This document shows positions 25,913 through 42,138 of a DNA stretch of 64,000 nt, one piece after another (the first letter of the stretch is position 1; each line of letters begins with the position of its first letter). The position numbers and the translations under genes were made by a program. Below the pieces are notes generated by a model that made no database searches, was not told where the DNA came from, and worked only from the letters and a program-made list of their open reading frames with translations. The DNA lies in the NCBI GenBank assembly GCA_014382295.1, contig JACNJZ010000045.1:6017-70016 (forward strand), written 5' to 3'. Origin of the DNA: Candidatus Desulfobia pelagia (GTDB taxonomy: Bacteria > Desulfobacterota > Desulfobulbia > Desulfobulbales > SURF-16).

Positions 25913-26671
25913 TCAGCCAAAGAATGCTTTGTGAAGTAGTTTTGCACATAAAATAAACAAAATGATGCTGAATATCAAACGGATACTTCGACCTTTCAAG
26001 CGAGTGCTCATGATGCGGGAACCAGCCTGACCTCCGGCAAAAGCCGCAATTGCAGCGGGAATCAAAAAAATCCAATTAATCTGTTGAATTGATACGTACC
26101 CCAGAAAACCGGTCAATGAAGAAAAACATACGATAAACGTTGACGAAGCAGCGGCAATTTTAGTTGGTGTTTTAAGCACATAAATGAGTAGAGGTACAAT
26201 AAATACACCACCGCCGATCCCCAATAAGCCTCCCATCAGCCCAATGCAGGCACCTATTCCAATGCCACCAAAAATTTTAGTGTAAGAACCGATTTTATTT
26301 CGTTCTATCTGGCCTGCAGGCGGCATCAACATACGTACCCCTGCCATGGCCAGGACAATGGCCAAGATAACCAGAAAGGGTTGTGGATCAATATATACAT
26401 TAAGATACGATCCAATTGGAGCCGCCAGGCTCGATGAAATGATCAAGGGAATGGAGAGTGAAAAATCCACCATCCTTTTTCGCGAATAGGTAAAAGCAGC
26501 AGATGCGGCAGCGATCAGATTGAGAAACAACGAGGCTGATGCCGCCTCAGACTTAGCAAACCCAAGAATAACAAAAAGAGGAGAAAATATAAGCCCTCCT
26601 CCGAGACCAACCATCGTCAATACCAGTGATATGAAAAAAATAGTAATGACGAGAAGCGCTGAGATACTCAT
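25913..26671 (-). CDS. TauE/SafE-family (sulfite-exporter-type) membrane permease
   Basis: 252 aa. Polytopic, with a duplicated G.GGG...P pattern (VGLGGGLIFSPL, LLGIGGGVFIVPL). 99 nt downstream of nuoN on the same strand. Confidence 0.8.
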   Translation of the reverse strand: MSISALLVITIFFISLVLTMVGLGGGLIFSPLFVILGFAKSEAASASLFLNLIAAASAAFTYSRKRMVDFSLSIPLIISSSLAAPIGSYLNVYIDPQPFLVILAIVLAMAGVRMLMPPAGQIERNKIGSYTKIFGGIGIGACIGLMGGLLGIGGGVFIVPLLIYVLKTPTKIAAASSTFIVCFSSLTGFLGYVSIQQINWIFLIPAAIAAFAGGQAGSRIMSTRLKGRSIRLIFSIILFILCAKLLHKAFFG

Positions 26672-26770: not shown

Positions 26771-28216
26771 TTAAAACCCAATCAATGATTTTCCTGCAAA
26801 ACTAAGGATAGGTCCCGGAAAAGTTGCCATACCGATCATTCCAATCATAGCCAGCACTAAAGCTGCTGTCATTCCAGGCGATATTGAAACAGCAGCAGTC
26901 TCTTGTACTGCATTTTCAAAATACATGTACCGTACTACCCGGAGATAATAATACGCCGAAATAACGCTAAAAATCATAGCAGCAACAACCGTAACAATAT
27001 ATCCTGCATGTATTGCGGCTACAAGCAGATAAAACTTACCTATAAACCCTGCTGTCGGCGGGAGGCCAACAAGGGAAAAAAGAAAAACGAGCATTAAAGC
27101 CGCAACCAGCGGATTTGTTTTAGCCAAACCCCGATAATCATCAAGCTGTTCACCGCGTCGCTTGTTATCGCAAAGCAGAATAAGAATGGCAAATGCCCCC
27201 ATATTCATGAAGGCATAGATAAACAGATAATTCATGGTGGCAGACAGCCCCTCATTATTCCCGGCCAGAATCCCTAACAGGGCATAGCCGGCATGGGCAA
27301 TGGAGGAATAAGCCAGCATCCGCTTTAAACTCTTTTGGGCAATAGCAGCAATATTGCCAATAGCCATGGTCAATACTGCTAGAAAGGCGATGATAGGCCC
27401 CCAATGAATATGGACGTCAGCAAATCCCATAATAAGAACACGCCCAAGCACGGCAAAAGCAGCAGCTTTCGGAGCAACCGCCATGAAGGCGGTAATGGAA
27501 GATGGCGCGCCCTCATAGACATCCGGAGCCCACATATGAAAAGGCGCTGCTGCCACCTTGAAACAAAATGCCACCAACACGAGACCAAGCCCCACCAGAA
27601 AGGCATGATTATTTATAAGATCGAGAGAAACCACGCGTTGGGATAACATACTTAAATCGGTGGTGCCGGTAAGTCCGTATATCAAGGAAATTCCATAGAG
27701 GAGGAGACCGGTAGAAAAAGCACCCATCAAAAAATATTTCAAAGAGGCCTCATTGGAGCGGCTATCTTGTTTCAATAAGCCAACCAGACAATAGACACTG
27801 AGAGCCATAAGTTCCAGCCCCAGATAGACAACGATCAAATCACCACCCGAGACCATAGCCATCATTCCCACTGTGGAAAAAACGAGCAGGCTGTAGTATT
27901 CACCATGACGAAGTTTTTCGGTTGTCAGGTAACGTTCTGATAATAAGACTGTAAACAGGACACCGACAAGGCATACCATTTTAAAGAAAACACTGTAGGC
28001 GTCTACGACATACATGTAGCCAAATACTATTCCACTGGGGCTGTTGAACAACAGCACCAGTGAAACCAGAGTACCTGCTGCAGTCAACCAGGGAAGAAGG
28101 AGACGGTTCTCAAAAAAGAGATCCACCACTATTAACAGTATCCCCACAGACAGAAGCACCAGCTCTGGTCCCAAAAAAGAGAGGGAGGACAGAGTGAAAG
28201 GTGAAAATGTATTCAT
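26771..28216 (-). CDS. nuoN: NADH-quinone oxidoreductase subunit N (antiporter-like)
   Basis: 481 aa. Last gene of the nuo-like operon, with a NuoN-type membrane pattern. Confidence 0.8.
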   Translation of the reverse strand: MNTFSPFTLSSLSFLGPELVLLSVGILLIVVDLFFENRLLLPWLTAAGTLVSLVLLFNSPSGIVFGYMYVVDAYSVFFKMVCLVGVLFTVLLSERYLTTEKLRHGEYYSLLVFSTVGMMAMVSGGDLIVVYLGLELMALSVYCLVGLLKQDSRSNEASLKYFLMGAFSTGLLLYGISLIYGLTGTTDLSMLSQRVVSLDLINNHAFLVGLGLVLVAFCFKVAAAPFHMWAPDVYEGAPSSITAFMAVAPKAAAFAVLGRVLIMGFADVHIHWGPIIAFLAVLTMAIGNIAAIAQKSLKRMLAYSSIAHAGYALLGILAGNNEGLSATMNYLFIYAFMNMGAFAILILLCDNKRRGEQLDDYRGLAKTNPLVAALMLVFLFSLVGLPPTAGFIGKFYLLVAAIHAGYIVTVVAAMIFSVISAYYYLRVVRYMYFENAVQETAAVSISPGMTAALVLAMIGMIGMATFPGPILSFAGKSLIGF

Positions 28217-28246
28217 AATTTCAATACCTCGTTAACATGTAACCAA

Positions 28247-30037
28247 TCACATACTCGAAAACATCCAGACCAGGACAACAAAAACGCCACCGGCCATAAA
28301 AGATAAATAGCGCGCTATCTGACCATTCTGCATCCACCGTAATTTTTCTGCAAAGTAGCCGACAACCCGGGCCAAACCATCCACTACGCCATCAATACCA
28401 TGCCAGTCAAACCAGGACCAGAAGCGGGCTGTAATCATAAGCGGCACCATCCCAGCCACCCGATAGACTTCACTCCAGGCATTATCGAATGACTGAATCG
28501 GTTTTCTAGCAAACCACATGAACACCTTGCTCCCCTTGCGATAAAACCAGTCAAAATCGAGACTGATCACCACTTCCGGCGCCAGTTTCTTGACAAACAG
28601 GAAAAACCCCAGAGCTGTGAACAACAGTATCTGCATGGACTCGGAAAGATGATATGCCGTATACGGGTGGTAGTGAACCGGGTATGGCAACAGGTTATAG
28701 AGAAACGGAGTATAGCAGCCGATGAAAATACAGAAAAAGGCGGCCACAGCCATGGCAATCTCCATATTAACCGGCGGGTCATCCGCTTTCTCCCAGGTTT
28801 CCTCGCTACAGTTATTCTTGCCGAACCAAATAAAATAAGGGACCTTGAGGCCTGTGTGGAGAAAGGTTCCGGCAGAGGCCAAGGTCAGCAGGAAAGCAGG
28901 CCACATGAGATGCTCATGAAACCCCGCCGCCACGATCATCGATTTACTGACAAAACCTGAAAACAAAGGAAAGGCTGAAATGGAAAGACCTCCGATGAGC
29001 GTATACACAAATGTTCTCGGCATCTTTTTATACAGGCCGCCGAGATCACTGAATTTACTCTTGTCTGTCATAAACAGCACCGAACCGCAGCCCATGAACA
29101 ACAGCCCTTTATAAAGAATATGGGCAAAAGCATGGGCACAGGCGCCGTTAATAGCCATTTCGGTACCAATACCGACCCCGGCTACCATATACCCGACCTG
29201 ACTGATAATGTGGTAGGCAAGAAGTCGCCTGGCATCATTTTCAAGCACCGCGTAAACGACACCATAGAGGGCCATAATGACGCCGAGGGGGACGAGGATA
29301 TCCATGCCGGCAAAACCACGGGCCAAGGCATAAATGGCGGTTTTGGTGGTAAAGGCACACATGAACACGGCTCCGGCTACTGTAGCCTCCCCGTATGCAT
29401 CAGGCAGCCAGGCGTGTAACGGCGGCACTGCGGCATTCAAAATAAAACCGATCATAATGAGGTAAGTATACAAGGTGGGTGAATCAACTCCGATTGGACC
29501 GAAGGAAAGATCGCCCCCTGTGGCCTTATAGCGTAAAATCAGGCCGGCCAACAACACTAGTCCCCCAAAGGTATGAACCAGCAGGTAGCGATAACCTGCG
29601 GATATGGATTGTTTTCTGCCGCGAAACCAGACAAGGAAAACCGAAGAAAAAGCCATCAATTCCCAGAAAAGAAAGAGGACGATATAATCGGCACAGTAAA
29701 TGACCCCGAGGGAGCCGGCAACATAGAGCCACGCCGCGAAAATCTCCCTGATCCCCTTCGCGTTCATGCCGTAAACAGTACCGATAAGACACATCAATGT
29801 CATGATAAAGCCAAAAACATGGCTTAATCCATCTACCCTGCCAAAGGTAAGCGTCCAGTCCATAAACTGAATAACGCCGAAGGTACCCTTGGCCATTGTT
29901 AACACATTGATGAAAGCAAGCAGAGGCACCAGGAGCAGGTAGAGATTACGAATAACCCTGGGTCCACGCACAAAGGGCAGGAGCAAAGCCCCTATGATCA
30001 GAACAGCGGCTGGATGAATCCATAAATCAGTCATCAT
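28247..30037 (-). CDS. nuoL: NuoL-type antiporter-like subunit with C-terminal lateral-helix extension
   Basis: 596 aa. MrpA/NuoL-like core, plus the C-terminus ...FDWFYRKG...WHGIDGVVDGLARVVGYFAEKLRWMQNGQIARYLSFMAGGVFVV followed by a final TM. This matches the NuoL amphipathic-helix region (IDG.VNG....LR..QTG.....). Confidence 0.75.
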   Translation of the reverse strand: MMTDLWIHPAAVLIIGALLLPFVRGPRVIRNLYLLLVPLLAFINVLTMAKGTFGVIQFMDWTLTFGRVDGLSHVFGFIMTLMCLIGTVYGMNAKGIREIFAAWLYVAGSLGVIYCADYIVLFLFWELMAFSSVFLVWFRGRKQSISAGYRYLLVHTFGGLVLLAGLILRYKATGGDLSFGPIGVDSPTLYTYLIMIGFILNAAVPPLHAWLPDAYGEATVAGAVFMCAFTTKTAIYALARGFAGMDILVPLGVIMALYGVVYAVLENDARRLLAYHIISQVGYMVAGVGIGTEMAINGACAHAFAHILYKGLLFMGCGSVLFMTDKSKFSDLGGLYKKMPRTFVYTLIGGLSISAFPLFSGFVSKSMIVAAGFHEHLMWPAFLLTLASAGTFLHTGLKVPYFIWFGKNNCSEETWEKADDPPVNMEIAMAVAAFFCIFIGCYTPFLYNLLPYPVHYHPYTAYHLSESMQILLFTALGFFLFVKKLAPEVVISLDFDWFYRKGSKVFMWFARKPIQSFDNAWSEVYRVAGMVPLMITARFWSWFDWHGIDGVVDGLARVVGYFAEKLRWMQNGQIARYLSFMAGGVFVVLVWMFSSM

Positions 30038-30290
30038 AATAGTCCTCGCGAGTCATGATGCCAAGATGCCCGAACCACTTGGAAACAAAGATAATCAATG
30101 TACAGGCGACAAAGCCGAAGATAGACCACCACCCCGGGATATAATGCTCAACCCAGCTATGGGCATGGTGCTCCTTACCGGTTAAGCCGGGAATTATATC
30201 GATGATAACAAGGAGAGCAAGAACCCCGTAACAGAGTCTCACGGTCATCTTCATTCGGTCTCGGAAAAAATCAATAAATTGCACTATCAT
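30027..30290 (-). CDS. Small two-TM membrane protein inside the nuo-like operon (possible accessory subunit)
   Basis: The track ORF 30027..30386 is trimmed to M33 (MIVQFIDFFRDRMKMTVRLCYGVLALLVIIDII...WWSIFGFVACTLIIFVSKWF...REDYYDD). The first 32 codons are encoded by repeat copy B. A GGGAG sits 9 nt upstream of this ATG. The 3' end overlaps the nuoL start by 11 nt. Confidence 0.5.
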   Translation of the reverse strand: MIVQFIDFFRDRMKMTVRLCYGVLALLVIIDIIPGLTGKEHHAHSWVEHYIPGWWSIFGFVACTLIIFVSKWFGHLGIMTREDYYDD

Positions 30291-30300
30291 TTGGCACTCC

Positions 30301-30454
30301 CATAAAAAGTCATGCTGCAGCGCCCAGATGGCTAAGCAAAAAGTTTGATAAACAAGGCGCAGTGTTTTTAACAGGGATTTGATCATACATGTCGTATATC
30401 AAATGTCTGTCAAAAACCTGCAACACAGTAGATCGGACTTTTTGCGACGCCATC
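30301..30454 (-). repeat. Structured intergenic repeat, copy B (~154 nt, reverse orientation), inserted between two nuo-operon genes
   Basis: The reverse complement aligns with copy A (2254-2395) over both conserved flanks. The central stem GCAGGTTTTTGACAG / CTGTTAAAAACACTGC pairs but differs in sequence from copy A (GTAGCAATTTTCCAGG / CTTGAAAAATTGCTAC). Confidence 0.75.
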
Positions 30455-30455
30455 A

Positions 30456-31937
30456 TCATTGGGTCACCATATTAACAAAGGTCATCATAAAATCAGGATA
30501 GATACCTATAATTACAGAAATAATTGCGGCAATCATGAGAGGGATAACCATGGACAACGGAGCTTCCTTAATCCCCTCGTAGGTTTCACCCTCCGGTCGC
30601 TTGCCAAAAAAGGCCCGGTAGGTGACAGGAGCAAAGTAGGCGGCATTAAGCAACGTACTGGCCAGCAGAACAAGCAAAATACCGATAGAATGAGTCTCCA
30701 TTTCCATGGCTCCCACCAACAGCTTCCATTTGGTGACAAAACCGGCTACGGGGGGGGCTCCGATCATGGAGAGGGAGGCAATGCCAAAAGCAGCAAAGGT
30801 AAACGGCATAGTCCGTCCAAGACCGGACATTTCCGAAATTGTTTTTTTGCGGGTGGCAACATAAATGGCACCGGCACAGAAAAAGAGGGTTATTTTCGAG
30901 AAAGCGTGATTGGCAATGTGCACCAGACCACCCTCAATCCCATTGGGGGTCAGCAGTGCGACCCCCAGGATAATATAGGAGAGCTGGCTCACTGTGGAAT
31001 AGGCAAGCCGCGCTTTGAGATTATCCTTGGTAAGCGCAATTATCGAAGCCGTGATGATGGTAAATGAGACAAAGTACGCCGTGGGAACCCCAAGACCCAA
31101 GGCACTCATCTGGTCCGTGCCGAATACGTAAAGCATAACCCTGGTAGTGGAAAAAACTCCCACTTTTACCACGGCTACGGCATGAAGTAGCGCACTGACC
31201 GGGGTTGGGGCTACCATGGCACCGGGCAGCCAGTTGTGCACCGGCATGACGCCATTTTTTGCAAAACCGATGAGGAAGCAGATATAGAGGATAGTTACCA
31301 CTACACCATTCACACCGACAGGAATAATGCCGGTGTGAATATTGTCGGCAAAATCCAGACTGCCGGTCAGCACATAGATAAGAATCATTGCCGGCAACAG
31401 CAGCCCTTTAGCCGTTGTGGTCAGGTAGACAATGTACTTGCGGGCACCGGAATAGCCTTCTTCGTCCTGATGGTGGGCGACCAAAGGGTAGGTACAGATG
31501 GAAACAATCTCATAGAAAAGATACAGGGTAAAAATATTATCCGCGAAAGCAACTCCTATCGCACCAAAAAGAGAAAGGGCAAAACATGTATTAAAGCGCG
31601 TCTGGGCATGTTCCAGCAATCCCCGCATATACCCCATTGAATAAAATGCCGCCAGGATCCAGAGAAAAGAGGCGACAATGGCAAATATCATAGAAAATGC
31701 ATCAGCCCGAAAGGTAAGGGATAATCCGGGCAGCATGTCGAACAGTTGATATTTATATACATTACCAGCCATCACTTCGGGAACCATGGAAGCAATAACG
31801 CCAAACATACAGACTGCAGCTGCCACCGACCAAGACTCTCGGATATTCGGATTTTTGCCTGAAAGACTCACTAAAATGGCGCCAAACAAGGCGCACAACA
31901 TTGCAACTAAAGGTTTGCTCGATACAATGACTTCCAT
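30456..31937 (-). CDS. Additional MrpD/NuoL-M-type antiporter-like subunit (no lateral-helix extension)
   Basis: 493 aa. LTFRADAFSMIFAIV...FYSMGYM....RF...LFYEIVSICTYPLVAHH matches the proton-conducting membrane transporter family. It is a fourth antiporter-like gene in addition to M, L and N. Confidence 0.7.
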   Translation of the reverse strand: MEVIVSSKPLVAMLCALFGAILVSLSGKNPNIRESWSVAAAVCMFGVIASMVPEVMAGNVYKYQLFDMLPGLSLTFRADAFSMIFAIVASFLWILAAFYSMGYMRGLLEHAQTRFNTCFALSLFGAIGVAFADNIFTLYLFYEIVSICTYPLVAHHQDEEGYSGARKYIVYLTTTAKGLLLPAMILIYVLTGSLDFADNIHTGIIPVGVNGVVVTILYICFLIGFAKNGVMPVHNWLPGAMVAPTPVSALLHAVAVVKVGVFSTTRVMLYVFGTDQMSALGLGVPTAYFVSFTIITASIIALTKDNLKARLAYSTVSQLSYIILGVALLTPNGIEGGLVHIANHAFSKITLFFCAGAIYVATRKKTISEMSGLGRTMPFTFAAFGIASLSMIGAPPVAGFVTKWKLLVGAMEMETHSIGILLVLLASTLLNAAYFAPVTYRAFFGKRPEGETYEGIKEAPLSMVIPLMIAAIISVIIGIYPDFMMTFVNMVTQ

Positions 31938-31963
31938 ATCTTTAGTTCCTTATCCTTTCCTTT

Positions 31964-33493
31964 TTACGGCAACAGTACATTCGCCATGGGAGCTATACCG
32001 GTCTGCATGCCAATGACCTGTTCAAGCAAATGGGCCACGCTTGCATGCATGACATTGATAAACGGCTTAGGTGCCAAACCTATCCAGAACACTAAAAGCA
32101 GTAACGGTGCCAGCGTAACGATTTCCCGAGTATTCAAATCAGACAGGCCGGTATGGATTGGATTTTCCGTGCCTCCCCATATCACTTTCTGCAGCATACG
32201 CAACATATAGGCTGCTGCCAGGATTGCCCCGGGAATGGCACAGGTGGCTATCAGTTTTGACTTAGCAAATCCACCGGCAAGAATCATAAACTCGCCGATA
32301 AAGCTATTTGTTCCGGGAAAGGCCAGCGACGAAAGTGAAAAAAATGCCAGAAAAGTCACATAGACAGGCATATACATGCCAACCCCCGCATTCAAAGCAA
32401 GTTCTCTGGTGTGGGTCCGTTCGTAAATAATCCCCACACAGAGAAACAGCGCTCCGGTAGTAATGCCATGGTTGATCATTTGCAGCAGAGCCCCTTCCAT
32501 GCCGTTGGGATTGAGAACAAAAATCCCCAGGGTGATAAAGCCCATGTGGCCCACACTGGAATAGGCAATCAATTTTTTCATATCACTCTGGGCAAGAGCT
32601 GTAAAACCGCCGTACAGGATCCCGGCCACAGACAACCATAAAATATACGGGGTGAAAGTAACGGAGGCGGCCGGGGTAATGGGCAGACAAAACCGCAGGA
32701 AACCATATGTGCCCATTTTCAAAAGTACGCTTGCGAGAATCACACTACCGGCTGTAGGAGCCTGAACATGGGCGGCAGGTAACCAGGTATGGAATGGAAA
32801 CATCGGAACCTTGATGGCAAAAGCCAGGAAAAACGCGACAAACACCCATTTTTGGAAGATTGAAGAATACCCTTGTCCCATCAGGAGTGGAATACTGAAG
32901 GTATGAGGGTCTGTATTAAAATAGAGAGCAATGATTGCCACCAGCATCAGTACCGAACCTGCCAATGTATAGAGAAAAAATTTAATCGAAGCATAGATCT
33001 TGCGTTCCCCCCCCCAGACGCCGATAAGAAAAAACATGGGGATGAGTGTTGCTTCCCAGACGATATAGAAAAATACAAAATCCAGGGCCATGAATACGCC
33101 TAACATGGTCGATTCAATGAGCAGAAGGCAGAACATGAACGCCCTCACCTTGGTTGTAATGTATCGCCAGGAACAGAGGACACAGAGTGGCATCAGCAAG
33201 GTAGTCATCAGGACAAGCAGCAGGCTGATACCGTCTATCCCCAGGGTATAATTGACATTAAGGGCCGGAATCCAGCTATGATGCTCACCAAACTGATAGT
33301 TATGGGTGGTTGGGTCAAAACTGTAATAAAGGGGGAGTGAAACAGCTGCTGTCAATATGGTCACACCCAGCGCCCAATATTTCTGAAAATTTTCTCCTGG
33401 AATAACAAACAAAAGAAAGGCCCCTGCCAGTGGCAGAATCATCAGGATACTCAGGATGGGCAGCCACCCGTCATGCAATATCAAAAAATCCAT
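31964..33493 (-). CDS. nuoM: NADH-quinone oxidoreductase subunit M
   Basis: 509 aa. LGIDGISLLLVLMTTLL and FYIVWEATLIPMFFLIGVWGG are classic NuoM motifs. Confidence 0.85.
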   Translation of the reverse strand: MDFLILHDGWLPILSILMILPLAGAFLLFVIPGENFQKYWALGVTILTAAVSLPLYYSFDPTTHNYQFGEHHSWIPALNVNYTLGIDGISLLLVLMTTLLMPLCVLCSWRYITTKVRAFMFCLLLIESTMLGVFMALDFVFFYIVWEATLIPMFFLIGVWGGERKIYASIKFFLYTLAGSVLMLVAIIALYFNTDPHTFSIPLLMGQGYSSIFQKWVFVAFFLAFAIKVPMFPFHTWLPAAHVQAPTAGSVILASVLLKMGTYGFLRFCLPITPAASVTFTPYILWLSVAGILYGGFTALAQSDMKKLIAYSSVGHMGFITLGIFVLNPNGMEGALLQMINHGITTGALFLCVGIIYERTHTRELALNAGVGMYMPVYVTFLAFFSLSSLAFPGTNSFIGEFMILAGGFAKSKLIATCAIPGAILAAAYMLRMLQKVIWGGTENPIHTGLSDLNTREIVTLAPLLLLVFWIGLAPKPFINVMHASVAHLLEQVIGMQTGIAPMANVLLP

Positions 33494-33501
33494 TGTTTAT
33501 C

Positions 33502-33804
33502 CTATCCTCTCAACTGATTTATTTCGTCTGAATATACGGTCCGCCGGTTACGGAACAGGGCCAAGACAATGCCCAGACCGATGGCTGCCTCTGCAGCAGC
33601 AACAGCAATGATAAAAAAAGTCATGACCTGCCCGTGCAGATCAGTCAGGTAATGGCTAAAGGCAACAAAGTTCAGATTTGCGGCATTCAACATAAGTTCT
33701 ATGCAAAGAAACATGATGATCACATTACGCCGGGTCAAAAACCCATACATACCGATGGAAAAAAGTATGATGCTCAATGCCAAATACCAGGTTACCGGAA
33801 TCAT
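33502..33804 (-). CDS. nuoK: NADH-quinone oxidoreductase subunit K
   Basis: 100 aa, three TM helices, NuoK pattern ([16 protein letters not shown]...[11 protein letters not shown]). Confidence 0.9.
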
Positions 33805-34367
33805 TTCTTTCCTCCCCTTGTCAATGACCCTGAACCTTCCTTTTGGGCCATGACAACCTCTTGTTTATCCTGCTTGGCCAGAAGAATTCCGCCAACGACT
33901 GCCACTAGCAGAATCAGAGCGATTATCTCAAATGGCAGAATATACGATGTGAATATTTCAATACCCAGAGCTTTGGTATGAGTTGCCTGGCGGATTGCAT
34001 CCGTGGTCCATTTCCCAGGTGTTCCTAAGCGAAAAGACTGTGTAACCGCTATAAGTATCAAAAAAACCAGGAAGGAGATGAATTTGGAGATATTATGATT
34101 TGCAACAAAACGCTCGGTTTTGATCTCTTGCCTGATATTGACGAGGAACAGCACAAAAAGATACAAAACGAGAATGGCGCCGGCATATACGATAATCTGG
34201 ATCGCTGCCAGAAATTCCGCATTGAGCAACAGGTATAATCCGGCCATATGAAAAAAGAGGACAAGAACGGCCAGAACACTGTGGACAGGATTTCGAAACC
34301 GCACAGCAAGTATGCCGGTAATGACAATCACCAGTGCGCAGTATAGAAAGATAAACTTGCTCAACAT
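33801..34367 (-). CDS. nuoJ: NADH-quinone oxidoreductase subunit J
   Basis: 188 aa, membrane protein. Positioned between nuoI and nuoK with 4-nt and 1-nt overlaps. Confidence 0.8.
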
Positions 34368-35002
34368 TATTCTCCTCCAGTAATCTTTTTACTGCGTGCT
34401 TTTCTTCCTATAAACTGATTTTCAATACGCCAGTCGTCAGGAACAGGAACTCTTTTTGCCGCCGTCAGTTCCGATTCAGGAAGGCCTCTTGGTCGCCAGA
34501 ACGGATTAACATAACTTGATTGATCATATGTGCTGCTGCTCATAAAATCATCCCAATTGCTCAGCAGTTTTTCTTTATCAAAATAGATTGATTCCCGATC
34601 ATACGAGGCATACTCAAATATATCTGTCATGGTAATGGCGTTGACAGGGCATACTTCGACGCAATAGCCGCAATACACGCATCGGAGGGCTTCAATATTA
34701 AAACTATCCATTACCCTGCGGGAGGTCTCTTCTTCCTGATGATATCGAATACTGATACATCGGGATGGGCAGATTTGCGCACAACGCATACAGGCGACAC
34801 ATTTGGCAGTACCGCTCTGCGGATCGCGAACCAGGGCATGCTGGCCACGGAAACCTGGATAGATCGGCGGCTTTTCTTTCGGATATTGCCTGGTAATCGG
34901 CGGGGAAAACAATTTGCTGAGGGTGAGAGCCAATCCCTGCAAAATTTCCGTGTGGAAGATGGTTTGCAGCCAATTTCTTTTCGGTTTGTATTTTACGATC
35001 AT
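34367..35002 (-). CDS. nuoI: NADH-quinone oxidoreductase subunit I (2x[4Fe-4S])
   Basis: 211 aa. Two ferredoxin motifs (CVACMRCAQICP, CVYCGYCVEVCP). Longer than typical NuoI because of a C-terminal tail. Confidence 0.85.
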   Translation of the reverse strand: MIVKYKPKRNWLQTIFHTEILQGLALTLSKLFSPPITRQYPKEKPPIYPGFRGQHALVRDPQSGTAKCVACMRCAQICPSRCISIRYHQEEETSRRVMDSFNIEALRCVYCGYCVEVCPVNAITMTDIFEYASYDRESIYFDKEKLLSNWDDFMSSSTYDQSSYVNPFWRPRGLPESELTAAKRVPVPDDWRIENQFIGRKARSKKITGGE

Positions 35003-35018
35003 ATCAATCTGTCTCGAC

Positions 35019-35987
35019 TTAATTTATGACGATCTTGACCAACCCGGTGAAAAAGATATTACCAAGGGCCAGTGGTATAAGAAGTTTCCAGCCAATCGTC
35101 ATCAACTGATCATATCTGTACCGTGGAAGTGTAGCCCGGATCCAAATAAAGACAAACATTATCAGGTACACTTTCAAAATGAACCATATCGGCGGGAAAA
35201 ATGGGACATTGAAGGGTCCGTTCCAGCCCCCCAGAAAGCAGACAACACCAATTGAGGCCATTACGAACATACCGATATACTCAGCCATGAAGAACATGGC
35301 ATAACGCATACCGCTGTATTCAGTGCAATAACCGGAAACAAGCTCCGTTTCAGCCTCGGGAAGATCAAACGGCACCCGATTTGTTTCAGCCAGCATGGCA
35401 ACAAAAAAAACGAAAAATGCCACAGGCTGGGTAAAAATATACATACCGGTAAAAGAGCTGCCCTGGGCTTCCACGATCTGTGTCAAGTTCAGAGAGCCGG
35501 ACAGCATCATGACTCCGACCAGGCTCAATCCCAGGGAAATTTCATAACTGATCACCTGGGCCATTGAGCGCATGCCGCCGAGCAGGGTATATTTTGAATT
35601 GGATGCCCAACCGGCAAGGATTATTCCGTAACTGGCCAGTGAACTCATGGCAAAGATGAAAAGGAGACCGATATTGATATCAGCAAGGGCCCAGCCTTTG
35701 GCAAACGGAAGGACAGCCAGCGAGACCATCATTGAAACAAGGCAAATAATAGGAGCTGCCAGGAAGAGGGGTTTATCCGCCTGTTCAGGAATGATATCCT
35801 CCTTGAAAAAACTCTTAATGCCATCGGCGATAGGCTGCAGAAGTCCATGCCATCCGACAAGCATTGGCCCCATGCGAACCTGCATATGACCGATGATCTT
35901 TCTTTCAAAATACGTGGCATAGGCGACATGCAGCAAAACGACGCCCACGAGAATTGCAATCTGAACCAATAATATAAGAATCTGCAT
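35019..35987 (-). CDS. nuoH: NADH-quinone oxidoreductase subunit H
   Basis: 322 aa. NuoH/ND1 pattern (ERKIIGHMQVRMGP, GLLQPIADGIK, NRVPFDLPEAETELV.GY.TEYSG). Confidence 0.9.
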   Translation of the reverse strand: MQILILLVQIAILVGVVLLHVAYATYFERKIIGHMQVRMGPMLVGWHGLLQPIADGIKSFFKEDIIPEQADKPLFLAAPIICLVSMMVSLAVLPFAKGWALADINIGLLFIFAMSSLASYGIILAGWASNSKYTLLGGMRSMAQVISYEISLGLSLVGVMMLSGSLNLTQIVEAQGSSFTGMYIFTQPVAFFVFFVAMLAETNRVPFDLPEAETELVSGYCTEYSGMRYAMFFMAEYIGMFVMASIGVVCFLGGWNGPFNVPFFPPIWFILKVYLIMFVFIWIRATLPRYRYDQLMTIGWKLLIPLALGNIFFTGLVKIVIN

Positions 35988-36046
35988 TCTGTTTCCTGAC
36001 TCCTGTCTAGTAAATCAGCAACCATTCACCGGGGTATAAATAGCTT

Positions 36047-36108
36047 GGCAAACTCCCTGACTGTAAAAGTTTGCCAGTGCCCCAGCTGGGTGCGGGTGAA
36101 CTTTTACT
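36047..36108. promoter_or_regulatory. Nested hairpins in the nuoD-nuoH spacer
   Basis: TGGCAAACT (36047-55) pairs with AGTTTGCCA (36069-77). GTAAAAGTT (36064-72) pairs with AACTTTTAC (36100-08). These enclose the perfect palindrome CCCAGCTGGG (36082-91). The 3' part (gaacttttactaagcatc) resembles the conserved 3' block of the 2254/30301 repeat. Confidence 0.5.
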
Positions 36109-36114
36109 AAGCAT

Positions 36115-37332
36115 CTATCTGTCACACTCACCCAATACAACATCAAGTGTACCGATTATGGCAATCAGATCCGCCACCATGGCTCCCTTTGCCAGTGTCT
36201 TAAGGGCACCGATATGGATAAAGGAAGGTGAACGAATATGCATACGGTACGGGCTGCCATTTCCGTCACTGATAAAATAAAATCCGAGTTCTCCTTTGGG
36301 AACCTCTGTCGGTACATAGACATCGCCTTCCATAAAGATATCCCGATCCTCTACCAGCTTAATCAACCCCTGACGGGCCGGAGTGTCCACCTCCACCTTT
36401 CTCCCCGGTTTATTCGGCATGACCAGGTCCGGGGCATCATCACCGATAATAGGACCCGGCGGCATCTGTTCAATACACTGACGCAGAATATGATTGGATT
36501 GACGCATCTCCTCCATCCGGCAGCGGTACCGAGCGTATGTATCACCGGTCTCACCCCGGGGAATTTCAAAATCCACCAGATCATAGGCGGCATAGGGAAA
36601 ATGTTTACGCACATCATAGTCGACACCCGAGCCGCGCAGGCTCGCTCCGGTGAGGCAGAGACTGACGGCATCCCTGGCTGACACTGTTCCGACGTTAACC
36701 GTGCGTTTCAACCAGATGCGGTTGGTATCGATAAGGGTTTCATATTCTTCAATATTGGCAGGAAATGCATCGACAAAACGTACCAGCTTCATCATGATGG
36801 AATGGGTTACATCCTGTCTTACCCCCCCCAGTCGGGTATAGGTTGTGGTCAACCTGGCACCGCATAGCTCTGCAAACAGCTCAAGGAGCTCCTCTCGTTC
36901 CCGGAAGCAATAGAGAAATACAGTCATGGCCCCGATATCAAGAGCATGGGTCGCCAGCCATAGCAGATGACTGGAGATTCTTGCCATTTCACAGACCATG
37001 GTGCGTAAATATTTAGCACGCAGAGGCACCTCAATTTTCAGCAACTTTTCGACAGCCTCACAGTACCCGACATTATTGGCCATGGCGGCGATATAATCCA
37101 AGCGATCCGTAAGAACCAAGTTCTGGACATACGTTCGATGTTCGGCCAACTTCTCAAAGCCCCTGTGGAGATATCCTACATGGGGCTCACATTCCATGAT
37201 CGTTTCACCATCCAGATCCAGATCCACACGAAGTACGCCATGGGTGGCCGGATGCTGCGGACCCATCCTGAGTCGATAATGGTCCTCATTGCCGGCGGAT
37301 ACCGGTATATCAACAGTTGTTGCTTTAATCAT
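36115..37332 (-). CDS. nuoD: NADH-quinone oxidoreductase subunit D
   Basis: 405 aa. MGPQHPATHGVLR, HRGFEKL and a C-terminal ...LGECDR, all typical of NuoD. Confidence 0.92.
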   Translation of the reverse strand: MIKATTVDIPVSAGNEDHYRLRMGPQHPATHGVLRVDLDLDGETIMECEPHVGYLHRGFEKLAEHRTYVQNLVLTDRLDYIAAMANNVGYCEAVEKLLKIEVPLRAKYLRTMVCEMARISSHLLWLATHALDIGAMTVFLYCFREREELLELFAELCGARLTTTYTRLGGVRQDVTHSIMMKLVRFVDAFPANIEEYETLIDTNRIWLKRTVNVGTVSARDAVSLCLTGASLRGSGVDYDVRKHFPYAAYDLVDFEIPRGETGDTYARYRCRMEEMRQSNHILRQCIEQMPPGPIIGDDAPDLVMPNKPGRKVEVDTPARQGLIKLVEDRDIFMEGDVYVPTEVPKGELGFYFISDGNGSPYRMHIRSPSFIHIGALKTLAKGAMVADLIAIIGTLDVVLGECDR

Positions 37333-37888
37333 GCCCGCCTTTCTCTTTACTTAAATTGTCATAAAAATCAAATTTACCCAATTCCCGGCTCTTCGCTTTT
37401 AATTCCTCATAGCCGATCCATTCTGTGTCTCCGCGTAAAGGATATTCTTTGCGTAAAGGATGTCCTTCCCAGTCATCAGGGGTAAGGATTCTTCTCTGAT
37501 CCGGATGGGAATTAAAATTGATCCCCATAAGATCATAGCACTCTCGTTCAAGCCAGTTGGCGCCGATCCACAGTGAAGTTATTGACTCGATGGAGCAGTC
37601 ATGTTCCGGCACCTGGACCCGCAGCCGAAACATTTGTTTTTGAGAAATGGAATACAATTGATACACCACTTCAAACCGTTCAAAAAATGGTCCTTTTCTT
37701 TTGGAATTATCCACCCCGCAGAGACACATGAGATGATTCATGTTGCATTCATCCCGCAGAAATCTGCATATCTCAACAATATGGTCACGCTTTACCATCA
37801 CGGCTTTCTGGCCCAAGTGTTCGTAACTCTCCAGCAGATCATCTGGGAATTCCTCCCGTAATTTTTCAACTATACCAGTTGACTCCAT
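37325..37888 (-). CDS. nuoC: NADH-quinone oxidoreductase subunit C
   Basis: 187 aa. [22 protein letters not shown]...[11 protein letters not shown] pattern. Confidence 0.9.
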
Positions 37889-38391
37889 CTCCCCTGCTCC
37901 CGATTAATTTTTTCCTGCAGTTTAATGAGCCCCTCCAGAAGCGCCTCCGGTCGAGGCGGACAGCCAGGAATGTAGACATCCACCGGCAGAAATTCATCTC
38001 CCCCCTGAACAACAGCATAGGTATCAAACACTCCGCCACTGCACGCACATGATCCCATGGCCAGGACATAACGGGGTTCCGGCATCTGGTCATATACGCG
38101 GCGAACCACAGGAGCCATTTTCTTCGATATGGTTCCGGCCAGGATCAGACAATCGGCCTGACGAGGACTGGCGCGAAAGATAACACCAAATCGATCAAGA
38201 TCATTAGTTGAGGCACCGGCAACCATCATTTCAATGGCACAGCAGGCCAGGCCGAAGGTAACCGGCCAGATAGAACCGGTACGCCCCCAGTTGATTATTT
38301 TATTGAGCGGGCCAACCAGGGCACTGGCGCCGGGAATAAACCTGACACCATCCTGTATCTTGACCAGGCCACTGTTATTCATTTGTCCCAT
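37870..38391 (-). CDS. nuoB: NADH-quinone oxidoreductase subunit B
   Basis: 173 aa. [15 protein letters not shown] and GSCACSGG...IPGCPPRPE (N2 cluster ligands). Confidence 0.93.
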
Positions 38392-38753
38392 TGCAGATTC
38401 CCTTTTTTCCAGGCATAGATAAAGCCGACAAGCAGCAAAATAATGAAAATAAACATTTCCACCAGGGCAAACATTCCCAACTTGTCATATACCAGCGCCC
38501 ATGGGTAAAGAAAGATGGCTTCCACATCGAAAACGATAAAAAGGATCGCAATCGTATAAAATTTGACAGAAAACCGCATACGTGGCGCTTCAGTAGGGGG
38601 ATTGCCCGATTCATAGGCCACCAGTTTCTCAAAATAAGGCCGCTGCACCCTGAAATATCGTCCTATCCAGAGTGTGATCACCCCAAAAGCAATACCAACC
38701 AGCAACAGCATCAGTATGGCCAAGTATTCTGATGGTAAAAATGCACCGGGCAT
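38379..38753 (-). CDS. nuoA: NADH-quinone oxidoreductase subunit A
   Basis: 124 aa, three TM helices. YESGNPP and [15 protein letters not shown] motifs. Confidence 0.9.
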
Positions 38754-38884: not shown

Positions 38885-39391
38885 TTACGATTTGTTTTGC
38901 AGGAGTTGTTCGGCAAATTGCTGTCGTTTTGCTTCGGATGCTTTATCCGGGGTAGTAAACTCCAAACACCCTGACAAGCACTTTGTGACACATGCCGGTT
39001 TAAGGCCCTCATCGATCCTGTCTTTACACAGATCACATTTGCCGACTTTACCGGTCCTGCCGTTCCACTGCGGCACTCCCCAGGGACAAGCCGTCATGCA
39101 GGCCTTGCATCCTACGCAGAGAGCATCGTCAACAAAGACAATCCCGTCTTTGTCACGGCGCTGCATGGCACCTGTGGGGCAGGCTTCCACACACCACGGA
39201 CTTTCACAGTGAAAACAGGCCATATAGACAAAATCTGAAATCGGCATACCGTTCTTTATCCTGGGACCAACCTCCATGATTTTGCAGTAATAGGCATTTT
39301 TGGCTGAGTCGTTTTTATCTTTGCAATGTGCCTCGCAGGCCCGGCAGCCTATACACCGTTCCACCCGCTGCGTTACTTGATATTTACTCAT
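38885..39391 (-). CDS. Four-cluster [4Fe-4S] ferredoxin-type subunit (PsrB/DmsB-like) of a molybdopterin oxidoreductase
   Basis: 168 aa. CIGCRACEAHC, CFHCESPWCVEACP, CVGCKACMTACP and CDLC...C..C groups. No signal peptide or TM segment. Confidence 0.85.
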   Translation of the reverse strand: MSKYQVTQRVERCIGCRACEAHCKDKNDSAKNAYYCKIMEVGPRIKNGMPISDFVYMACFHCESPWCVEACPTGAMQRRDKDGIVFVDDALCVGCKACMTACPWGVPQWNGRTGKVGKCDLCKDRIDEGLKPACVTKCLSGCLEFTTPDKASEAKRQQFAEQLLQNKS

Positions 39392-39454
39392 GGTTTCAAA
39401 CCTCCATTTCTTGATCGTATATTGGATAGGATTTCAGTAAGTTCCATAAAGATA

Positions 39455-41554
39455 TTACGCTTCGGGCGGTTTTTCGCCACGGCTTATGGAAACAAAGGAT
39501 TCACAGAGATTAAGCCCCCCTCCTGCCTCATCCATTTTATCAAGGAGTCCGCTCATCAAACGCTGATCGCTCACTCCCTTGTTATACGTTCTTGTCTGTT
39601 TTGGAACTTGTCGTCCGAAACCATGAACTGTAAAGACAGCTTCAGGATGGATAAAATCGGTTACGTGTGCCGGAACAGTTCCCGTATAGCCGTCTGCACC
39701 GGTCATATTCACCCAGTCGCCATTTTTGATCCCCAACTTTGCTGCCTCAGCCGTGTTGATTGACACATAATTATAGGGCATCATCTCATTTAACAGCGGG
39801 TTATTCTGGGTATGGCTGTGGGTATGCAGGCCGCAGCGGCCAAAAACAAGACGATATTTCCCCTCCGGCGGCGCCTCTGGACTCTCGTACGGTTTTAATG
39901 ATTCCAACCCGGCCTTGGTCAGCTTCTCGCTTACTATCTCAATTTTCCCCGACGGGGTTTTAAATTTTCCTTCTAAGTTGTCAGGCTCTGGCGGAATGGG
40001 TGTATCCGTTAATGAAATAAATCCCTTTTCATCAAAATCCTCAATAGTATATCCAGTCGGTTCAAGCTGCCAGTCCCAAAGCTCCTCAATGGAATTGTAC
40101 GGAAAGTATTCATCTACACCCATTCGTGTTGCCAGTTGCTTAAAAATTTCCCAACTCGGTTTCGTGTCAAAAATAGGGTCGATTGCCTTCTTGCGTCGAG
40201 CGAGTCGTGGTTTCGCTCCTTTCTGCACGACAATGTGATTATCCCGCTCCAGGAAAGTGGCATGGGGAAGAATTACATCTGAAAACCAGCCATATTCGCT
40301 GTAATGAACATCAATGGAAACAAGTAATTCACAATTATTAAGTAATGCTTTTTGCGCCTCCGGATCTGGCATCTGAGTGAAAAGATCATGACGCATGGCG
40401 ACCCAGGCCTTAACCGGATAAGGTGAACCGGTCTTCATGGCCTCAAAATTCAGGTGTGCAAGACCGGGTCCCTTATCAAAATGAGTATATTTTTTACCGA
40501 CACCATCAGCCCTTTCGATGTCAGGTTTTGGGCAGTCAAGTGCTCTCGGACCTTTTTTTCCACAATCTCCGGGTCCCCTTGGAATGAGCAGCCCCCCTTT
40601 CTGTTCAATAGAGCCCATGAGCGCATTGATGGTATGAATGGCGCGGCTGGCGTAAAACGAATCTCTGTAACGGGTAAGCATCCAACCGGGATGGAAAATA
40701 ATACTCGGCCTATCGTCATTAATTTCCCGGACAAAATCCTTAATGGCGCCTTCCTCAACCCCGCACTCTTTTGCAGCCCAAGCCGGCGTATATTGTTCAA
40801 CAAAATCGCTTAATTCGCTGAAACCGGAAACCCATTGACTGACAAAGTCATTATCATAGGCTCCCTCCTTGATGATCTGATGCAGAATCCCAAGGCACAG
40901 GGCATAGTCCGTTCCGGGGCGTACCAGGAAAAATCGGGTTGCTTTGTTACTTGTCTTGGTCTGCCGGACATCCACATAGGTCAGGCGACCGCCGTTATCA
41001 AGCATGTCAAGAACCTGACGGTTTTCGGGTATGCGTAATGAATCAAAGGTGTTGCGGCCAAAGAGGACCAAGTGCCGAGAATTCTTGATATCATACTGGA
41101 AACCCTTTCGGCCAACGCCATTAATTGACAGACTGGCATGATGGGTGTTTCTGCCACAGGTATCATCATGGTTGGTATAATTTGGTGATCCAATGGCATG
41201 GCAAAAAGTTTTATACATATCCTGCCATGGGCCACCCCTCGAAGAAACAACTATAGATTCAGCTCCATATTTTTCCCTGATTCCTTTCAGTTTATCGGCA
41301 ACATAATCAAGGGCTTCATCCCAGCTTGCAGTGCGCCATTTACCCTCACCCCTTTCACCTTGCCGGATAAGCGGTTGCTGCGGTCTCTGCTGGTCTTTAG
41401 TAAGGGCAATCCCGGCTGTTCCCCGTGCACAAAGGGCACCGTTCAACAAATGCGGATTGCCCTCTATCCAGGTTACCTTATTATTTTCAGACTCAACGCG
41501 GATAGGACAACGAACAGTACACATTCCGCACATGGTGTACACAGATTTTTTCAT
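39455..41554 (-). CDS. Molybdopterin (Mo/W-bisPGD) oxidoreductase catalytic subunit, Psr/Phs-like, no Tat signal (start trimmed to MKKSVYTMCGMC)
   Basis: The track ORF is 720 aa. I prefer M22 as the start because AGGAG lies 8 nt upstream. It has an N-terminal CGMCTVRCP...C..G [4Fe-4S] motif and a candidate Mo-ligand Cys in SPNYTNHDDTCGRN, which is Psr/Phs/Arr-type spacing. No RR-type twin-arginine leader is present. Confidence 0.8.
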   Translation of the reverse strand: MKKSVYTMCGMCTVRCPIRVESENNKVTWIEGNPHLLNGALCARGTAGIALTKDQQRPQQPLIRQGERGEGKWRTASWDEALDYVADKLKGIREKYGAESIVVSSRGGPWQDMYKTFCHAIGSPNYTNHDDTCGRNTHHASLSINGVGRKGFQYDIKNSRHLVLFGRNTFDSLRIPENRQVLDMLDNGGRLTYVDVRQTKTSNKATRFFLVRPGTDYALCLGILHQIIKEGAYDNDFVSQWVSGFSELSDFVEQYTPAWAAKECGVEEGAIKDFVREINDDRPSIIFHPGWMLTRYRDSFYASRAIHTINALMGSIEQKGGLLIPRGPGDCGKKGPRALDCPKPDIERADGVGKKYTHFDKGPGLAHLNFEAMKTGSPYPVKAWVAMRHDLFTQMPDPEAQKALLNNCELLVSIDVHYSEYGWFSDVILPHATFLERDNHIVVQKGAKPRLARRKKAIDPIFDTKPSWEIFKQLATRMGVDEYFPYNSIEELWDWQLEPTGYTIEDFDEKGFISLTDTPIPPEPDNLEGKFKTPSGKIEIVSEKLTKAGLESLKPYESPEAPPEGKYRLVFGRCGLHTHSHTQNNPLLNEMMPYNYVSINTAEAAKLGIKNGDWVNMTGADGYTGTVPAHVTDFIHPEAVFTVHGFGRQVPKQTRTYNKGVSDQRLMSGLLDKMDEAGGGLNLCESFVSISRGEKPPEA

Positions 41555-41776: not shown

Positions 41777-42133
41777 TTAAGAAAGAACTTTGGCTACCTT
41801 TTCTTCCAGTTCCTCCTTGTCAATGGGCTTGACGCAGTATTCCTGGGCGCCAAGAGCCAGAGACTGGCGTGCTGTTTCAATGGTTGGATATCCGGTGAGC
41901 ATAATCACCCTTATTTCGGGATAAACTGCTTTAATTTCAGCCAACACCTCCACGCCGCTCATCTTTTTCAGTTTGATGTCAAGTATGACGAGATCCACCG
42001 TGTTGGACTTAATAAAATCAATAGCATCTTCCTCTTCAGTAAAGGTATGGACTTCATGGTCCTTTCTTTCGAGGATTCTTTTTATCAGAATTCCGGCATC
42101 ATAAACGTCATCTAATACCATAATGCGTGCCAT
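41777..42133 (-). CDS. Single-domain CheY-like response regulator (start trimmed to MARIMVLDD)
   Basis: The REC pattern is MARIMVLDD...DLVILDIKLKKMSG...VIMLTGY...CVKP. The 51 upstream codons of track ORF 41777..42286 overlap the preceding gene and were discarded. Confidence 0.85.
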   Translation of the reverse strand: MARIMVLDDVYDAGILIKRILERKDHEVHTFTEEEDAIDFIKSNTVDLVILDIKLKKMSGVEVLAEIKAVYPEIRVIMLTGYPTIETARQSLALGAQEYCVKPIDKEELEEKVAKVLS

Positions 42134-42138
42134 TTGAT

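Follow-up and report, generated by a model that had tools for sequence, protein, structure and literature searches.

In a stretch of 64,000 nucleotides (nt) from Candidatus Desulfobia pelagia (contig JACNJZ010000045.1, positions 6,017 to 70,016 of the forward strand; hereafter, the window), thirteen contiguous open reading frames (ORFs) on the minus strand, running from 38753 to 26771, encode a complex I-like enzyme and read nuoA-B-C-D-H-I-J-K-M-D1-s-D2-N, where D1 and D2 are antiporter-like pumps and s is a small membrane protein. What is new here is the chimeric make-up of this operon, which joins two Nuo lineages in an unusual gene order, is confined to one clade, and is maintained by selection; it adjoins a Psr/Phs-like module composed of a molybdoenzyme (MoA) and an Fe-S protein (FeSB). 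Judged from its sequence affinities, the operon is the backbone of one lineage, here called type-2, in which NuoL-NuoM was swapped for the block NuoM-D1-s-D2 of the second, green-type lineage. MoA and FeSB (38885-41554) lie just upstream of nuoA, beyond the coordinates of an earlier note on this DNA that had drawn attention to the operon.

Chimeric descent of the nuo operon

All thirteen ORFs were found where the earlier note had placed them, and were assigned as follows (aa, amino acids; TM, transmembrane).

38379-38753, minus: nuoA, type-2 lineage (NCBIfam)
37870-38391, minus: nuoB (NCBIfam; N2 ligands C50, C51, C115, C144)
37325-37888, minus: nuoC (NCBIfam)
36115-37332, minus: nuoD, 405 aa (NuoD equivalog, 513 bits; H31 and Y80 present)
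35019-35987, minus: nuoH (NCBIfam)
34367-35002, minus: nuoI, 211 aa (NCBIfam; conserved C-terminal extension of ~55 aa)
33801-34367, minus: nuoJ (NCBIfam)
33502-33804, minus: nuoK (NCBIfam)
31964-33493, minus: nuoM, green-type descent, displaced between K and D1 (TIGR01972, 613 bits)
30456-31937, minus: D1, 493-aa antiporter-like pump ('MrpD1' of green complex I; end-to-end match to the equivalog model NF006236, 832 bits)
30291-30456, minus: palindromic repeat element of 166 nt between D1 and s
30027-30290, minus: s, 87 aa, two predicted TM helices (alignment of 79 distinct homologues)
28247-30037, minus: D2, 596-aa antiporter-like pump ('MrpD2') with L-type lateral helix and last TM helix (NF009310, 734 bits)
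26771-28216, minus: nuoN, type-2 lineage (TIGR01770, 463 bits)

The Nuo subunits and the antiporter-like proteins all have NCBIfam and Pfam matches. Families were assigned from family bit scores, PDB scores, and signature residues, which were used in place of a full tree of L, M, N, MrpA, and MrpD. A single protein in the window passes the NuoM model. The earlier note had read D2 as a NuoL with a lateral-helix tail; the tail is present but the orthology is not, as D2 scores 167 bits with the NuoL model, under the 407-bit cutoff, and represents a separate family. Both D1 and D2 have L/MrpA-like rather than M-like signatures (Gln at the position of E. coli NuoL-315, Lys at 342 and 399), and neither the MrpA C-terminal domain nor MrpB, C, E, F, or G is present with them. 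In agreement with the four antiporter-like subunits counted previously, all four retain most channel residues (in NuoM, E147, K228, K259, and E401; in D1, E143, K227, H252, K258, K348, and K403). In NuoD, an N-terminal GPQHP and a C-terminal GECDR replace the NiFe CxxC pairs, and the NiFe ligands are lost; with the N2 cysteines of NuoB and the quinone-site His and Tyr of NuoD kept, the Q-module is, by these residues, intact and looks functional. The absence of nuoE, F, and G from the junction of nuoD and nuoH was borne out: the gap of 127 nt is gene-free, and searches with Pfam or NCBIfam found no NuoE, F, or G homologue among the scanned ORFs of at least 150 aa in the 64-kb window.

Identities to the window proteins separate the subunits by descent. 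The green-type values listed are ranges over green-type clusters, and the type-2 values are those of the locus L087, in which NuoN is partial.

NuoA: green type 31-41%; L087 77%
NuoB: green type 52-64%; L087 77%
NuoC: green type 27-41%; L087 58%
NuoD: green type 34-41%; L087 73%
NuoH: green type 39-45%; L087 84%
NuoI: green type 24-38%; L087 60%
NuoJ: green type 24-32%; L087 57%
NuoK: green type 37-48%; L087 73%
NuoM: green type 64-78%; L087 51%
D1: green type 70-88%; type-2 not applicable
s: green type 38-86%; type-2 not applicable
D2: green type 58-78%; type-2 not applicable
NuoN: green type 33-38%; L087 52% (partial)

In overall figures, identity to the green type is 76-88% for NuoM, D1, s, and D2 and 28-59% for NuoA-K and NuoN. 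Because NuoM, D1, s, and D2 are closer to the green type while NuoA to NuoK are closer to type-2, we conclude that the operon combines parts of two Nuo lineages. The Q-module, the proximal subunits, and NuoN of the window come from another lineage than the pump block; the window NuoD (405 aa) and NuoI (211 aa) also differ in length from their green-type counterparts (371-375 aa and ~146 aa, respectively). The type-2 lineage was recovered by searching with the window MoA and has the order MoA-FeSB-A-B-C-D-H-I-J-K-L-M-N, i.e. a canonical three-pump arm in which a NuoL of 639-641 aa is followed by M and N, where the window has M-D1-s-D2 for L-M. The type-2 clusters (L087, L170 of strain B35, and that of Desulfolithobacter dissulfuricans from GF1_30490 on) have in common with the window the MoA clade, the 168-aa FeSB subtype, the NuoI extension, and the NuoA-K lineage (57-84% identity). 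Both parental types are carried by one metagenome-assembled genome (MAG; L072, standard green-type, and L087, type-2) and also by the cultured D. dissulfuricans, in which GF1_30490-30530 encode PhsA-1 (701 aa), PhsB-1 (168 aa), NuoA (124 aa), NuoB (173 aa), and NuoC (195 aa), and GF1_31140-31220 run from a NuoM of 516 aa through a NuoD of 377 aa.

Among the loci typed, the order K-M-D1-s-D2-N is found only in L001-3, L006-L010, and L012. This hybrid clade is small, lies within the Desulfobulbales, and comprises the window species, a 'Desulfobia sp.' MAG (D1 96% identical), and Desulfocapsa-like MAGs down to 84%; the sister genome L011 (D1 88% identical) retains the standard green cluster. No second D1 locus was found in the six hybrid MAGs among the 80 best matches, and the two parental complexes may have been merged rather than duplicated in these MAGs. 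Each of the 15 genes running from MoA to NuoN has a ratio of nonsynonymous to synonymous substitution rates (dN/dS) of 0.04-0.15 (compared with L008, dS ~1) and is under purifying selection; we conclude that the hybrid is maintained by selection. The physical order of subunits in the membrane arm of complex I is J/K-N-M-L. On this order, the breakpoints would fall at subunit interfaces, N having been kept with its own J/K and M with its own D1/D2, such that only the N-M interface would be new.

The D1-s-D2 module in place of NuoL

When each species was represented by a single genome, 526 or more relatives were recovered, and in the 80 best species loci every ORF was typed against a reference panel. 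The order is A-B-C-D-H-I-J-K-D1-s-D2-M-N, or the contig-covered part thereof, without nuoEFG in 69 of these 80 loci; six share the window order, and the remainder are truncated, are without a call for s, or have a local J/K swap. The gene order is non-canonical, as had been claimed, and is K-M-D1-s-D2-N in the window but K-D1-s-D2-M-N in the green type. D1 is 70-88% identical to proteins of hundreds of Desulfobulbia, Desulfobacterales, and Fundidesulfovibrio genomes, and the green-type copies of Desulfobacterota are 58-88% identical to the window in D1, D2, and M and 38-86% identical in s. A copy on a Phyllobacterium plasmid is ordered J-K-D1-s-D2-M-N-A-B-C-D-E-F-G (D1 54%, s 44%, D2 53%, and M 55% identical). 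This rhizobial green operon has nuoEFG, which the window operon lacks; in a further difference from the green type, genes for a molybdoenzyme and for a four-cluster Fe-S protein precede the window operon.

The same D1-small ORF-D2 arrangement for NuoL, with NuoM and NuoN adjoining, is known from two sources. It is the rhizobial 'green complex I' of Degli Esposti & Martinez-Romero 2016, as related in PMC9040806 and PMC7415380, and a Desulfovibrio africanus operon was named 'NUO11+M' by Degli Esposti 2015 (PMC4758237). We conclude that D1-s-D2 is a conserved three-gene module standing in for NuoL and that the four-pump composition is already described; four pumps without the N-module are the standard form in Desulfobulbales and Desulfovibrionales. 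For the extra pump, the 87-aa ORF, and the L-like protein pointed out in the earlier note, novelty is therefore not supported, as this set was described before (PMC9040806; PMC4758237) and is standard in the 69 loci. The note had also allowed that the arrangement might prove to be that of a characterised Nuo type, which applies to the composition but not to the exact order.

We give hardly any credence to the idea that D1-s-D2 is a separate Mrp-like cation/proton antiporter merely sharing the operon, even though NCBIfam and the source annotations call both pumps 'Na+/H+ antiporter subunit D' and D2 is without the TM7 Lys. In nearly every sampled locus, the module lies inside a nuo cluster beside nuoK, nuoM, or nuoN; it is never found with MrpB/C/E/F/G in the sampled loci; and canonical NuoL is missing wherever it occurs, which puts the module in the place of NuoL. 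Moreover, D2 retains the L-type lateral helix, an element that requires adjacent subunits for it to clamp, and in relatives the start of s overlaps the stop of D1 and the start of D2 overlaps the stop of s, arguing for coupled translation.

D1 is without a lateral helix. In D2, an invariant Asn201 takes the place of the TM7 Lys in the window and in 35 homologues at 71-91% identity, and the lysines of TM8, TM11, and TM12 are retained; to our knowledge, the TM7 Lys pairs with the TM5 Glu in every canonical antiporter-like subunit. Among solved structures, MbhH (6cfw_H) is the best relative of D1 and MbsH' (6u8y_X) that of D2, and no solved structure of the D1-s-D2 module exists. Between the conserved Pro and the last TM helix, D2 has ~65 residues and E. 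coli NuoL ~68; the lateral helix of D2 is not lengthened, and the picture of an enlarged arm held by this tail is unproven. The D2 helix aligns to NdhF without insertion, and by alignment it lacks the ~26-residue lateral-helix insertion of the 2M complexes described below, as reported likewise for the rhizobial proteins by Yu et al. 2022 (PMC9040806). A 14-residue D2 insertion in a MAFFT alignment vanished in the HMMER alignment to NdhF. An AlphaFold2 model of D2 (predicted local distance difference test score, pLDDT, 71.6) was set aside for measuring the helix, as pLDDT is <50 over residues 476-570, and alignments were used instead.

The ORF of s has 119 aa from its first ATG; 79 distinct homologues, all of which start MI(V)x(F/L)ID(F/Y)(F/L)R, set the start at MIVQFIDFFRDR and support the 87-aa protein with two predicted TM helices that had been proposed. 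This protein has the conserved motifs HAHT, PGFWSxFGF, and GIMTREDYYD, a dN/dS of 0.09, is specific to the D1/D2 module, and forms a stand-alone family of 219 representative clusters. No relative of s was found in Pfam, NCBIfam, or PDB, even with a 21-sequence profile; FrdD (best match, E=3) and MbhD (a faint match, 2 of 21 members) were treated as noise. We suggest that s would be an obvious candidate for an adaptor accommodating the extra subunit. The palindromic element of 166 nt extends exactly from the D1 stop to the s start (RNA fold -65.8 kcal/mol, z = -6.8) and is found only in this species, whereas in L006 (96% identical) and L007-L012 D1 and s overlap by 4 nt. Another copy, 74% identical, is intergenic at 2252-2385, and a 36-nt piece is present in L104. 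The element looks like an insertion of the miniature inverted-repeat transposable element or repetitive extragenic palindrome (MITE/REP) type, which breaks the translational coupling and creates the spurious 119-aa ORF. The three enlarged spacers of the locus (FeSB-A, D-H, and D1-s) are not copies of one element, and of the three only the D1-s spacer is a repeat.

Two further observations concern relatives of the pumps. D1 homologues of 560-587 aa (P0017, P0024, and P0040) were considered as D1-s fusions, but their additional 70-95 residues are low-complexity C-terminal tails rich in His, Pro, Gly, and Ala. D1/D2 that are 72-78% identical to those of the window occur in L082, P0088, and P0306, whose MAG records are labelled Opitutaceae, Betaproteobacteria, and 'Nitrospira bacterium SG8_35_1'; the explanation is either that the green-type cluster was transferred horizontally or that bins or labels are in error.

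The MoA-FeSB pair and its linkage to nuo

The two genes upstream of nuoA are the following (Mo-bisPGD, molybdenum-bis(pyranopterin guanine dinucleotide)).

39455-41554, minus: MoA, 699-aa PsrA/PhsA-like Mo-bisPGD oxidoreductase beginning MKKSVY, in an ORF that reaches 41617
38885-39391, minus: FeSB, 168-aa PsrB/DmsB/HycB-like subunit with four Cys groups (Fer4_11)

MoA has the Pfam domains Molybdop_Fe4S4, Molybdopterin, and Molydop_binding, and an FS0 motif (C-x2-C-x3-C...C); it scores 518 bits with the PhsA model, below the cutoff of 694, and its best solved relative is the polysulfide reductase PsrA of Thermus thermophilus (2vpw_A, E=6e-116, query 3-696 on chain 38-747). Because MoA has no RR/twin-arginine translocation (TAT) leader, and the alignment begins near the N-terminus of the PsrA chain and leaves no room for one, MoA is predicted to be cytoplasmic. 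The Cys groups of FeSB, which matches PsrB (2vpw_B) and HycB (7z0s_B) in the PDB, are consistent with four [4Fe-4S] clusters. With no TAT leader and no gene for a PsrC/NrfD-type anchor among the window ORFs scanned, MoA-FeSB is, as far as can be read from the sequence, a cytoplasmic, anchor-less Psr/Phs-like pair, which shares with complex iron-sulfur molybdoenzymes (CISM) of the Psr/Phs type the FS0 catalytic subunit and the four-cluster subunit but neither leader nor anchor. CISM substrates are not readable from sequence (PMC12998232). The TAT-exported MolyABC cluster of disproportionators was set aside as an identity for MoA, there being no TAT leader and no TorD-like gene nearby, and Rfam gave no match in the window, the molybdenum cofactor (Moco) riboswitch included.

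In relatives, this pair is tightly linked to nuo. FeSB ends 3-18 nt upstream of nuoA in L087, L100, L170, L147, L152, L155, and the hybrid L012, and the NuoD of the FeSB-nuoA-linked lineages is 58-85% identical to the window NuoD. The Nuo-linked MoA, that of the window included, form one clade, and the window FeSB is 67-75% identical to other Nuo-linked FeSB versus 43-54% to stand-alone FeSB (150 aa). A C-terminal helix (…ASExxRRQxFAExLL) is present on Nuo-linked FeSB (166-171 aa) but not on the stand-alone 150-aa FeSB; similarly, the ~55-aa extension of NuoI (NWDxF...NPFWRPRG...VPxDW) is common to type-2 and hybrid loci but missing from the green type.

PhsA-1, PhsB-1 (168 aa), NuoA, NuoB, and NuoC of D. 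dissulfuricans were detected by proteomics, NuoA and NuoB solely under thiosulfate disproportionation. Thiosulfate disproportionation in Dissulfuribacter induces a TAT-less PhsAB-like enzyme that ranks with the most strongly induced proteins, and the authors of that work urge study of 'its potential membrane association' (PMC13490349). In the literature searched, we found no paper on a link or adjacency between a PhsAB-like enzyme and Nuo.

We consider it evenly balanced whether the locus encodes one membrane enzyme from three inherited blocks, with MoA-FeSB in place of NuoEFG. Several points weigh against such an enzyme. The Nuo-linked loci were ascertained through a MoA search, which does not establish a constant FeSB/MoA upstream of type-2 Nuo. 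In the window itself, FeSB and nuoA are separated by 131 nt with a promoter-like site (38839-38812), so that co-transcription is not assured; scans for promoters and terminators gave no more than shuffled controls did and do not settle the operon structure. In an 80-locus metagenome survey, most MoA-FeSB pairs of Desulfobulbales are not adjacent to nuo, their neighbours, also in Desulfocapsa sulfexigens, being a histidine kinase, a receiver protein, a 572-aa TauE-family protein, and a ~210-aa membrane protein. The Dissulfuribacter authors propose a purely soluble role for the PhsAB-like enzyme (PMC13490349), and Nuo subunits of Dissulfuribacter decrease under thiosulfate disproportionation. 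As to the arm, the pumping competence of D2 is uncertain given Asn201, a lateral helix of canonical length leaves the clamping of four pumps unexplained, and the AlphaFold model of D2 is of low confidence over the helix region noted above.

The spacer with its promoter-like site, the majority of pairs away from nuo, and the proposed soluble role would fit a ferredoxin/flavodoxin:menaquinone oxidoreductase like cyanobacterial NDH-1, accompanied by an independent soluble thiosulfate/polysulfide reductase composed of MoA-FeSB; the fourth pump would then harvest the larger energy span from ferredoxin to menaquinone. Nuo without the N-module is generally thought to use ferredoxin or several partners, with the donor being debated (PMC11238625), and green-type clusters share the D1-s-D2 arm without an upstream MoA-FeSB. 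We nonetheless regard this alternative as rather unlikely, since FeSB abuts nuoA in five or more type-2 lineages that have diverged, as well as in the hybrid L012, the C-terminal additions are restricted to Nuo-linked FeSB and type-2 NuoI, and the Nuo-linked MoA are monophyletic. A donation of electrons from NADH, through a NuoEFG-like set encoded elsewhere (e.g. diaphorase subunits of the Hox/Mvh type) that docks on the complex, was raised by the authors on Desulfurivibrio dismutans for the green-type Nuo of that organism, but appears very improbable here. No nuoEFG was seen among the ORFs scanned in the window or in ~90 Desulfobacterota loci with 10-kb flanks, these genes being present in the rhizobial plasmid version only, and NuoI would have its lineage-specific extension instead of the canonical NuoG-facing surface.

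Further genes were observed around the operon and the MoA-FeSB pair.

25913-26671, minus: TauE/SafE-family anion exporter, 99 nt downstream of nuoN
~41777-42133, minus: receiver-domain protein
42139-42783, minus: 214-aa membrane protein of no known family, 3-4 predicted TM helices
42875-44593, minus: 572-aa TauE-family protein (the D. sulfexigens and Desulfolithobacter homologues carry DUF8269+TauE)
44708-46264, minus: PAS histidine kinase
46261-46827: 188-aa membrane protein of no known family, 3-4 predicted TM helices

The TauE/SafE exporter is possibly part of the unit. The block 41777-46264 travels with MoA-FeSB in Desulfobulbales, and the 214-aa protein could be the membrane partner of stand-alone MoA-FeSB pairs. 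A DDE transposase (50693-51643) lies between this minus-strand sensor/MoA block and plus-strand genes for a PPDK-like protein, a phosphatase, and a sigma-54 regulator (56699-61717). In D. sulfexigens (L086) and Desulfolithobacter (L169), these plus-strand genes instead form an unbroken run with the kinase-TauE-MoA block, all in one orientation, which suggests an inversion associated with an insertion sequence in the window. At 673-2136, two ORFs of ~478 aa overlap fully on opposite strands, with no Pfam match on the strand tested. Among the Nuo-linked loci, L152 (12589-14202) and L155 have a 537-aa ORF, with no Pfam family, between a stand-alone-type MoA-FeSB and a second FeSB-like gene that abuts nuoA. 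In L087 (4942-9413) and L170 (4740-9335), MoA-FeSB-nuo is preceded by an oxidative-stress set consisting of a Fur/PerR-like regulator, AhpC, desulfoferrodoxin, rubredoxin, a flavodiiron protein, and a 107-108-aa protein without assignment; these neighbours might bear on the use of the type-2 complex.

Proposed working and significance

Our best reading of the locus is a proton-coupled menaquinone:sulfur-compound oxidoreductase, possibly run in reverse, to which MoA would be coupled. It starts from what the sequences show, namely which genes are present, their chimeric descent and conservation, the intact residues at cofactor sites and in channels, and the close spacing of FeSB and nuoA in relatives. 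Three blocks would compose the enzyme: the Q-module together with the proximal part of the membrane arm (NuoA-D, NuoH-K, and NuoN) from the type-2 lineage; that lineage's own upstream partners, the cytoplasmic MoA and the four-cluster FeSB; and the distal pumps NuoM, D1, s, and D2, transplanted from the green/NUO11+M type and replacing the type-2 NuoL-NuoM. Electrons would pass between the Mo-bisPGD site and menaquinone at NuoD/H by way of FS0, the four FeSB clusters, the two NuoI clusters, and N2 in NuoB, and their flow would drive, or be driven by, ion translocation through the E-channel and the four antiporter-like units (nominally 5 H+ per 2 e-). FeSB and MoA would dock on NuoI, and D1 would have a position in the arm that, like substrate, direction, and stoichiometry, we infer.

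The likely substrate couple would be of very low potential, namely thiosulfate/(sulfide+sulfite). The potential of thiosulfate/(HS- + HSO3-) is ~-402 mV and that of menaquinone -74 mV. Because the couple lies ~328 mV below menaquinone, the enzyme would work near equilibrium and plausibly in reverse, such that the proton motive force (pmf) drives menaquinol electrons onto thiosulfate/polysulfide in sulfur-compound disproportionation; either direction is conceivable. Lifting two electrons by 328 mV takes a pmf of ~164 mV at 4 H+ and ~131 mV at 5 H+ (2 x 328 mV / n), and the lower need at 5 H+ would rationalise the grafting of a four-pump arm onto the enzyme. The fuller proposal is that the Psr/Phs-like MoA and FeSB would constitute a new class of electron module docking on the NuoI extension, with Nuo as the membrane partner of the 'soluble' PhsAB-like enzyme of sulfur disproportionators and a four-pump arm acquired by recombination that moves 5 H+ per 2 e-, so that menaquinol could reduce thiosulfate or polysulfide at the expense of the pmf, or the reverse; we regard it as possible rather than probable.

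Formate hydrogenlyase (FdhF-HycB-HycCDEFG; PDB 7z0s) is a precedent, in which HycB, a homologue of FeSB, wires a Mo enzyme to a NuoI-like subunit. The proposed enzyme would resemble it in combining a cytoplasmic Mo-bisPGD enzyme, a HycB/DmsB-type protein, and a membrane enzyme of the complex I family. The two differ in that formate hydrogenlyase ends at a NiFe centre and the window enzyme at a quinone pocket with cluster N2, and in that the Mo subunit belongs to the formate dehydrogenase family in the former and to the Psr/Phs family in the case of MoA. The PhsAB-like enzyme of Dissulfuribacter thermophilus consists of a TAT-less PhsA-like and a PhsB-like protein without a PhsC anchor, with TauE/SafE exporters in the model; it is modelled as soluble and is not beside nuo, and its likeness to MoA is one of description (PMC13490349).

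Other complexes with more than three antiporter-like subunits are known. As Yu et al. 2022 relate of Chadwick et al. 2018, the 2M complex I of Nitrospira, with its second NuoM, is of this kind, and a ~26-residue lateral-helix insertion is used to argue for a fourth pump (PMC9040806). Complex_I_3 of 'Ca. Manganitrophaceae' is described as a hybrid containing green-type MrpD1/D2 (PMC9040806). As with the window enzyme, translocation of one more proton and a role in reverse electron transport have been suggested for these complexes, whereas the window has no second NuoM, no 26-residue insertion, four pumps rather than five, and another backbone lineage and taxon.

The electron donor of the N-module-less complex I of anaerobes is still debated (PMC11238625), and the paper on D. 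dismutans posits 'some unknown electron-donating oxidoreductase'. The linkage of FeSB to nuoA and the paired additions on FeSB and NuoI provide a concrete candidate partner for such a complex, and a cultured carrier exists in D. dissulfuricans GF1, which expresses the type-2 parent. If MoA-FeSB is not coupled to Nuo, the locus is a rearranged member of a described four-pump family. If it is, the complex would be the missing membrane link for the cytoplasmic PhsAB-like enzyme of thiosulfate disproportionation. The natural swap of a three-pump for a four-pump arm bears on the modularity of the membrane arm and on why extra pumps evolve.

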